Source: Eledone cirrhosa
Taxonomy: Eukaryota
NCBI GenBank assembly: GCA_964016885.1
Contig: OZ024749.1
Span: 44,640,001 to 44,704,000 of the forward strand
Length of the DNA stretch: 64,000 nucleotides
Direction: 5' to 3'
The notes below the pieces were generated by a model. It was given only the letters and a program-made list of their open reading frames with translations. It did not search any database and was not told where the DNA came from. Shown one piece after another: positions 43,094 through 43,492 of this stretch. Each line of letters begins with the position of its first letter. Positions within the stretch are counted from its first letter, which is position 1. The translations under genes were made by a program, and so were the position numbers.

Positions 43094-43281
43094 AACAAAG
43101 GAATTGTGGTAGGGAACGATCTGGAACATAACGCACCAAAGTACTCAATACTTAGGGTAGTAGAGTGGGAAATAGGAAAAAGTATGACCCCGAAGACAGA
43201 GCTCAAGCCGTTTCGACGGCTATTTCTGAGTCCAGAAATAGCCGTCGAAACGACTTAAGCTCTGCCGTCGGGGTCATACTT

Positions 43282-43285
<4 letters not shown>
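43094..43285. mobile_element. Family C element in (TA)n
   Basis: ~53-bp inverted arms 43176-43228 and 43233-43285 around an AGTC loop. Confidence 0.8.
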
Positions 43286-43344
<59 letters not shown>

Positions 43345-43345
<1 letters not shown>

Positions 43346-43490
43346 GAATTCTACCCAGGGCTTCCTGATGATTTCTCCGGAATGAAACAGTTCTAGTCCT
43401 GTAGAAGCCTTTCTAGATTAAATATTTATTTTCTGCTTTGTATTGAGTACCTTACTTATTGTGGTTACCCCCGATTAAACCCGGGATAAG

Positions 43491-43492
<2 letters not shown>
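43345..43492 (+). mobile_element. Family B element in (TA)n
   Basis: Homologous to 18206, 18677 and 44692; the 3' end CCCGGGATAAGCT abuts (TA)n. Confidence 0.8.
43357..43411 (+). ncRNA. Type I hammerhead ribozyme (family B, best copy)
   Basis: Stem I AGGGCTTC/GAAGCCTT; core CTGATGA at 43365-43371; stem II T-TTC-TCCG-GAA-T; GAA; stem III ACAG/CTGT with loop TTCTAGTC; GUA cleavage triplet ending at 43403. Confidence 0.8.

Follow-up and report, generated by a model that had tools for sequence, protein, structure and literature searches.

A covarying bulged hairpin near the ends of Hydra-clade Penelope-like elements, with a possible role in placing reverse transcription starts

Reverse transcriptases of LINE and R2 elements recognize 3′ stem-loops that occur singly and within the part of the 3′ end that is copied. 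The reverse transcriptase of Penelope-like elements (PLEs) is sister to TERT, and the boundary element of telomerase stops copying. The elements described here bear on how PLEs choose their internal starts of reverse transcription and on how their one-sided tail and inverted arms originate.

For the Hydra clade of PLEs, passages of Craig et al. 2021 (PMC8557442) describe (TA)n targets, type I hammerhead ribozymes often carrying a U.U, inverted truncated arms and a one-sided tail, all of which recur in the elements analyzed here. Relatives of our motif also flank open reading frames (ORFs) with RWK, DKT and CxCX5C, and the hairpin reported below is present in some of the published consensus sequences. 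The tail is ~60–80 nt long here, compared with the 30–40 bp given for PLEs. No such hairpin is described in those passages, which include the Hydra section and contain the word ‘hairpin’ 0 times.

In the Poseidon PLE PAc, which belongs to a clade different from Hydra, the relevant passages of Frangieh et al. 2024 (PMC11167929) report internal starts in vitro at two sites bounding the tail, cutting and extension of both target strands, and a protein predicted to be a dimer, a set of features resembling what we propose here. The PAc starts, however, are located in an AC-rich stem-loop of the ORF, and those passages report no duplicated conserved hairpin, whereas the hairpins here lie upstream of the ATG. 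Non-LTR retrozymes, as characterized in parts of PMC7229834 and of a preprint (bioRxiv 10.64898/2026.07.22.740005), are likewise short non-coding animal repeats with type I hammerheads and ties to PLEs. They form head-to-tail tandem arrays, whereas the repeat families B and C considered here are mostly single or inverted TA-flanked ends. A retrozyme assignment of B and C was rejected: no tandem units with a whole hammerhead were found, and the sole C doublet (13249–13624) lacks one.

Element copies in the window

The window is the whole 64-kb stretch of Eledone cirrhosa DNA that was analyzed; it is microsatellite-rich and non-coding. Its families B and C are, as judged from their sequence, TA-flanked 3′ ends of PLEs: short, 5′-truncated pieces between (TA)n runs, mostly with an inverted second arm (Table 1). 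(TA)n, the Hydra-clade insertion target, stands at the ends of all copies of B, C and a third family, D. The inverted arms of B and C lack the last 65–80 nt, reproducing the truncated inverted arm and one-sided tail of PLEs. Family B has a predicted type I hammerhead core with stems I–III, as in Hydra-clade pLTRs; 43359–43364 pairs with 43404–43409 as stem I, the triplet is GUA, and the U.U at the base of stem II is a variant of many Hydra-clade hammerheads (part of File S2, PMC8557442). Rfam at gathering score gave 0 matches in the window, this hammerhead included, and elsewhere only sub-threshold matches to miRNA models, in one of five loci.

All six C copies keep only the 3′ half of the hammerhead (in C43095, GAAA, stem III with a palindromic loop, and the 3′ strand of stem I), so the C cleavage site is an inferred position; D also keeps only the 3′ half. 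A tblastn search of the window found no parent ORF for B, C or D, its single match having an E of 0.5, which leaves only an indirect basis for assigning B and C to the clade.

The inverted junctions of C43095, C44424, C25752 and C40258 all fall in or near hammerhead stem II, and the 5′ half of the core is always lost; two cDNAs may have annealed through stem II. Another repeat family with a type I hammerhead is present at 23800–23946 and 55806–55947 (both minus strand). The hairpin was seen in neither copy, the first ends in (TA)n ~55 nt after its predicted cleavage site, and both may be short-end copies (see below) of that family. The window also contains an abundant ~190-nt repeat, often arranged in tandem or as inverted pairs and adjoining (TA)n (2213–2406, 21403–21826, 27838–28349, 43811–44160, 62238–62590 and others), which may be SINE-like.

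Table 1 Predicted element copies, hammerhead and hairpins in the window (positions within the window).
Feature	Position	Strand	Remarks
Family B copy	43345..43492	+	putative 5′-truncated 3′ end of a PLE between (TA)n runs; long-end type
B type I hammerhead	43359..43409	+	6-bp stem I; U.U at stem II base; predicted cleavage after GUA, 43403
Hairpin 1 of this B copy	43430..43450	+	degenerate: one outer-stem mismatch plus wobbles; 11-mer 43440–43450
B copy	44692–44822	−	hairpin 1 at 44733..44753
B copy	18205–18314	−	hairpin 1 at 18247..18267; inverted arm 18315–18374 is a short-end copy
Older B copy with inverted arm (B18676)	18676..18855	−	hairpin decayed; missed by non-window model
Family C main arm (C43095)	43095..43231	−	3′ hammerhead half, hairpin 1, long end at (TA)n
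Hairpin 1 of C43095	43141..43166	−	perfect; best window match of non-window model, E 6e-4
Inverted second arm of C43095	43232..43287	+	ends in (TA)n 5 nt before hairpin 1 position (short end)
C copy (C44424)	44424–44613	−	hairpin 1 at 44470..44495; inverted arm ends at −5
C copy (C25752)	25752–25918	−	hairpin 1 at 25798..25823; inverted arm ends at −5
C copy (C40258)	40258–40437	−	hairpin 1 at 40304..40329; inverted arm ends at −5
Tandem C doublet	13249–13624	−	hairpins at 13381..13406 and 13549..13574
Family D hairpin	5551..5588	+	half hammerhead upstream at ~5518–5529; (TA)n 32 nt further on
Candidate hairpin	25548..25575	−	in older TA-flanked remnant 25478–25712; G-C outer pair, CC replaces AC; model E 0.07

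A bulged hairpin containing the shared 11-mer

An earlier note on this DNA had pointed to an 11-mer shared by B and C at the same relative position in otherwise different surroundings, an observation that our measurements bear out. The 11-mer matches exactly at 43440 (+), 18247 (−) and 44733 (−) in B and at 25798, 43141 and 44470 (all −) in C. The distance from the predicted cleavage site to the 11-mer is 36–37 nt in B and 40–42 nt in three C copies (~37–41 nt in the note), and that from the 11-mer to (TA)n is 41–42 nt in B and 46–48 nt in C (~42–47 nt in the note). Outside the hairpin described next, local alignment of B and C is at chance level, 480 and 452 of 500 shuffles scoring as high, which rules out that the two families are recent relatives. 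One-mismatch sites occur at 3973, 13381, 13549 and 40304, three of the four in additional C copies. Ten matches with up to one mismatch in the 64 kb compare with 2.47 expected, and ten were reached in 0 of 100 shuffles; because the copies belong to two repeat families, the independent fact is a single B/C coincidence.

The 11-mer forms the 3′ arm of a hairpin composed of RCTC, a stem of free sequence, a loop, a 2-nt bulge and GAGY, followed by AC. In the window, ACTC upstream of the 11-mer pairs with GAGT, and the next three bases pair across the 2-nt bulge on the 3′ side. A strict descriptor found seven such sites in the window, two in B, four in C and one at 5581, compared with 0.56 in 100 shuffles. 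The last is the looser match that the note had placed before a (TA)n; it does precede one, and it belongs to family D, with the same hairpin, half a hammerhead and a different but fully paired inner stem. Preservation varies among copies: the hairpin at 43430 is detected only if one mismatch is allowed, the sole 11-mer change in C40258 falls in the bulge, and one inner pair is broken in each of the tandem C hairpins at 13381 and 13549. A model built from 16 families outside the window places eight B and C copies at the top of the window ranking (rough E values of 6e-4 to 0.013), gives the D hairpin an E of 0.62, and misses the hairpins at 43430 and in B18676. The minus-strand remnant at 25478–25712, which carries a candidate hairpin, has a decayed hammerhead-like stretch, and no intact hammerhead was seen in it.

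Among reads of family B, a subfamily (171 reads) has an inner stem matching that of C, and a minor variant converts G.U to A-U. Within the best 40 of 71 variants, none in the stems exceeded 5% in X1, but most flank positions were also invariant. Thermodynamic stability was dropped as evidence: regional folding z-scores ran from −0.9 to +1.0, and only in some copies does the hairpin coincide with the minimum-energy fold. As it is no more stable than shuffles, the case for the hairpin rests on comparison.

A metagenome scan with a pattern consisting of the Hydra-type hammerhead core and the 3′ arm of the hairpin only yielded at least 117 loci. The pattern omits the 5′ arm, so that pairing was predicted and not selected. 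Valid hammerhead stems were present in 37 of the 119 matches listed. A perfect 7-bp bulged hairpin occurred in 25 of these 37 listed matches, compared with 8 of the 82 other metagenome matches listed, some of them decayed elements, and 3 of 40 matches in viral contigs, where no Hydra ORFs were found and which served as a control. The 37 listed matches fall into 21 families; RCTC stands at the required distance in 17, and of the four families lacking this anchor, three have shorter hairpins. The inner stem is paired in 47 of 51 cells across the 17 families, against a permutation mean of 35.1 (sd 2.2) with 0 of 100,000 permutations as high, values that overstate independence because the families share ancestry; this relatedness also inflates the controls. 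An alignment of 16 families with B, C and D is paired in 94 of 95 cells and includes seven two-sided changes. Wobbles comprise 6 G.U and 0 A.C cells, which favors the sense strand. Up to 4 of the 11 letters of the 11-mer are changed in other families with the pairs retained, the outer stem is changed on both sides in L160 and L165, and the spacing between the arms varies from 12 to 18 nt. In 11 non-Hydra control loci, which have a canonical-type hammerhead and the imposed 3′ arm, RCTC was present upstream in three and a perfect hairpin in none, though a looser motif may occur there.

Six published Hydra consensus sequences, inspected by eye (PMC8557442), include three perfect hairpins, one imperfect and two doubtful; one of the three perfect cases has both copies at its 5′ end. 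The ORFs neighboring L062 and L063 contain RWK, DKT and CxCX5C, given as Hydra-clade features in passages of section 11 of PMC8557442, and each element has a single ORF of <3 kb, in keeping with the definition of the clade. A Hydra-clade ORF is expected to combine these motifs with RT and GIY-YIG domains and to lack CCHH. Pfam and PDB gave no significant match for the Hydra ORF.

Several of the loci deserve separate mention. L158–L173 are animal-type Hydra-clade elements accompanied by microsatellites on contigs filed in bacterial assemblies, probably through host contamination. L162, L168 and L170 form a family with GC in place of AC after the hairpin. Seven loci with canonical-type hammerheads (L043, L051, L078, L093, L114, L117 and L130) have another short motif, GTTGGT-like, downstream of the ribozyme. 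L060, L061, L137 and related loci have a hammerhead-like core with a weak stem II and a wobble-rich hairpin ~33 nt before a TA run.

The cis element suggested in the earlier note thus finds support, as a conserved element, in its recurrence in Hydra-clade PLEs of unrelated hosts, but the 11-mer is not its unit. The unit is the covarying bulged hairpin, which intact elements carry twice. That the B/C match reflects chance or an inert remnant of homology is hardly credible: what the two families share is 11 letters at comparable places within a single window, and one B copy has lost the motif, yet covarying recurrence in 17 families and in loci selected by protein (below), all with unrelated flanks, largely refutes this view. 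Very improbable, too, is a role in the pLTR as a duplicated promoter or transcription-factor site, promoter activity having been one of two functions that the note had offered. The motif does lie in the pLTR upstream of the ORF and L164 begins at hairpin 1, but compensatory changes that include the outer stem, together with the free sequence of the inner stem, are unexpected for a factor site; the variable arm spacing and the G.U bias also disfavor a promoter, which would leave the 3′ ends unexplained.

Two hairpins and two classes of element end

Loci that run on into the ORF carry a second hairpin (hairpin 2) 61–82 nt after hairpin 1 and 23–43 nt before the ATG. To avoid selection on the motif, 16 loci were chosen by protein alone, on contigs that we read as host-derived. 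A hairpin lies 47–64 nt before the ORF start in all six of these with an intact start. Hairpin 1 is present as well in four of the six by the strict descriptor and in the other two by the model, one of which is cut by (TA)n and the other has a substitution. Within the ORFs of the protein-selected loci the hairpin had 0 matches in 12,974 nt. Hairpin 2 was not seen in the window in B, C or D themselves; from their relatives, we infer that the parents of B and C carried it.

Element ends fall into two classes, each mostly 3–7 nt 5′ of one hairpin. Long ends lie at −4 from hairpin 2 in L063, L160 and L164, each compared with its own run-on copy, and at −5 in L168. Those of the L054 group lie at −3 in seven of nine cases and at −6 and −7 in the other two, positions blurred by a TA-rich reference. 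Short ends lie at −5 from hairpin 1 in four of four C inverted arms measured against the main arm of the same copy, at −7 for 13336, and at −6 in L120, L075/L147, L162 and L169; two B inverted arms aligned to +1 and −1, where TA overlap blurs the position. Reads of family B agree, the element giving way to (TA)n 5 nt short of hairpin 1 in 414 reads and 17 contigs. Four comparisons were further off (−17, −21, −25 and −39), involving a diverged reference or a contig end. The protein-selected loci contain 28 hammerhead matches. Of these, 10 are followed by (TA)n at 40–61 nt without a hairpin and 6 at 112–127 nt with one; in three a TA run directly precedes the hairpin, one reaches (TA)n at 155 nt, and eight have none within 170 nt.

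(TA)n also stands directly before the hairpin, inside or at the start of the element, in L129 and L164. The run could have arisen because an element inserted into the TA patch or because the patch was copied reiteratively.

Proposed role in placing reverse transcription starts

We propose, at a probability of about 0.6, that each of the two hairpins binds the reverse transcriptase-endonuclease on RNA and sets one start of reverse transcription ~3–7 nt to its 5′ side. The other function suggested in the earlier note, recognition by the reverse transcriptase or endonuclease, agrees in this respect with the fixed distance to the element ends. Starts positioned in this way would explain both the PLE ‘tail’ and the inverted insertions. 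The protein would cut both strands of a (TA)n target, and the short TA-rich patch before each hairpin could anneal to the primer. One active site would copy from just before hairpin 2, producing the long end, and the other from just before hairpin 1, producing the short end. Head-to-head joining of the two truncated cDNAs would then yield inverted repeats in which a single arm bears the motif. A long end started before hairpin 2 would include hairpin 1, and hence the tail, with the motif ~41–48 nt from (TA)n; hairpin 2 would not be copied at the 3′ end, so that B and C would show hairpin 1 only.

More tentatively, and at slightly less than even odds, the arrangement may act as a two-site RNA ‘ruler’, in which the twin hairpins would each dock one subunit of a reverse transcriptase-endonuclease dimer, fix the start beside the TA primer patch and allow both target ends to be extended at once. 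The dimer would be as predicted for PAc, the only system from which this state is drawn. Like the LINE and R2 stem-loops, the hairpins are small structured cis elements near the start of copying; unlike them, they are two in number, and each sits on the 3′ side of its start and is not part of the copy made from there. A protein-bound stem beside a primer-matching patch, as proposed here, would also resemble the template-flanking elements of telomerase RNA, with no homology implied, except that the hairpins would place a start whereas the telomerase boundary element stops copying.

The main rival places recognition on DNA. The GIY-YIG endonuclease would act on cDNA or donor DNA, where it would recognize the motif as an inverted repeat or a single-strand hairpin and cut in the TA patch 3–7 nt away, so that the element ends would be cuts. 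This reading, which we consider rather unlikely, accounts equally for the fixed distance to the ends. It also draws on the D. virilis tail, needed for endonuclease recognition as cited in passages of PMC11167929, and on passages of PMC8557442 that ascribe tails to endonuclease resolution. The variable arm spacing and the restriction of G.U to the sense strand (6 versus 0) speak against a duplex site, though not against a hairpin in single-stranded DNA, and in PAc the ends map to reverse transcription starts on RNA, according to passages of PMC11167929.

Less likely again is that the hairpins serve as an RNA site for packaging or translational autoregulation, or as a folding aid for the hammerhead, with the ends following from the TA patch alone. 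Hairpin 2 does end 23–43 nt before the ATG, PAc hammerhead cleavage requires protein (passages of PMC11167929), and a TA dinucleotide occurs at −9 to −3 in 15 of 16 hairpin-1 flanks and 8 of 8 hairpin-2 flanks, against an AT-rich background. The flanks are AT-rich throughout, yet the ends cluster at two sites tied to the hairpins, which argues against the TA patch alone.

We found no description of the hairpin in the text of open-access papers, including passages of PMC8557442, PMC4209133, PMC3846280, PMC7229834 and the 2026 retrozyme preprint. The class of element is known; what appears to be new is a hairpin that comes as a pair and is linked to both ends.

In animal hosts that are unrelated to one another, the hairpin pair predicts the position of both element ends with an error of a few bases, a relationship that is directly testable. 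It also offers a marker for finding and trimming Hydra-clade elements, whose protein clusters number at least 2,934, and is relevant to how the sister group of telomerase recognizes RNA. The two-site arrangement, if true, would give the PLE tail and the inverted insertions their first sequence-level rule. It would then also supply a portable tag with which cargo RNA could be loaded onto a reverse transcriptase related to telomerase.
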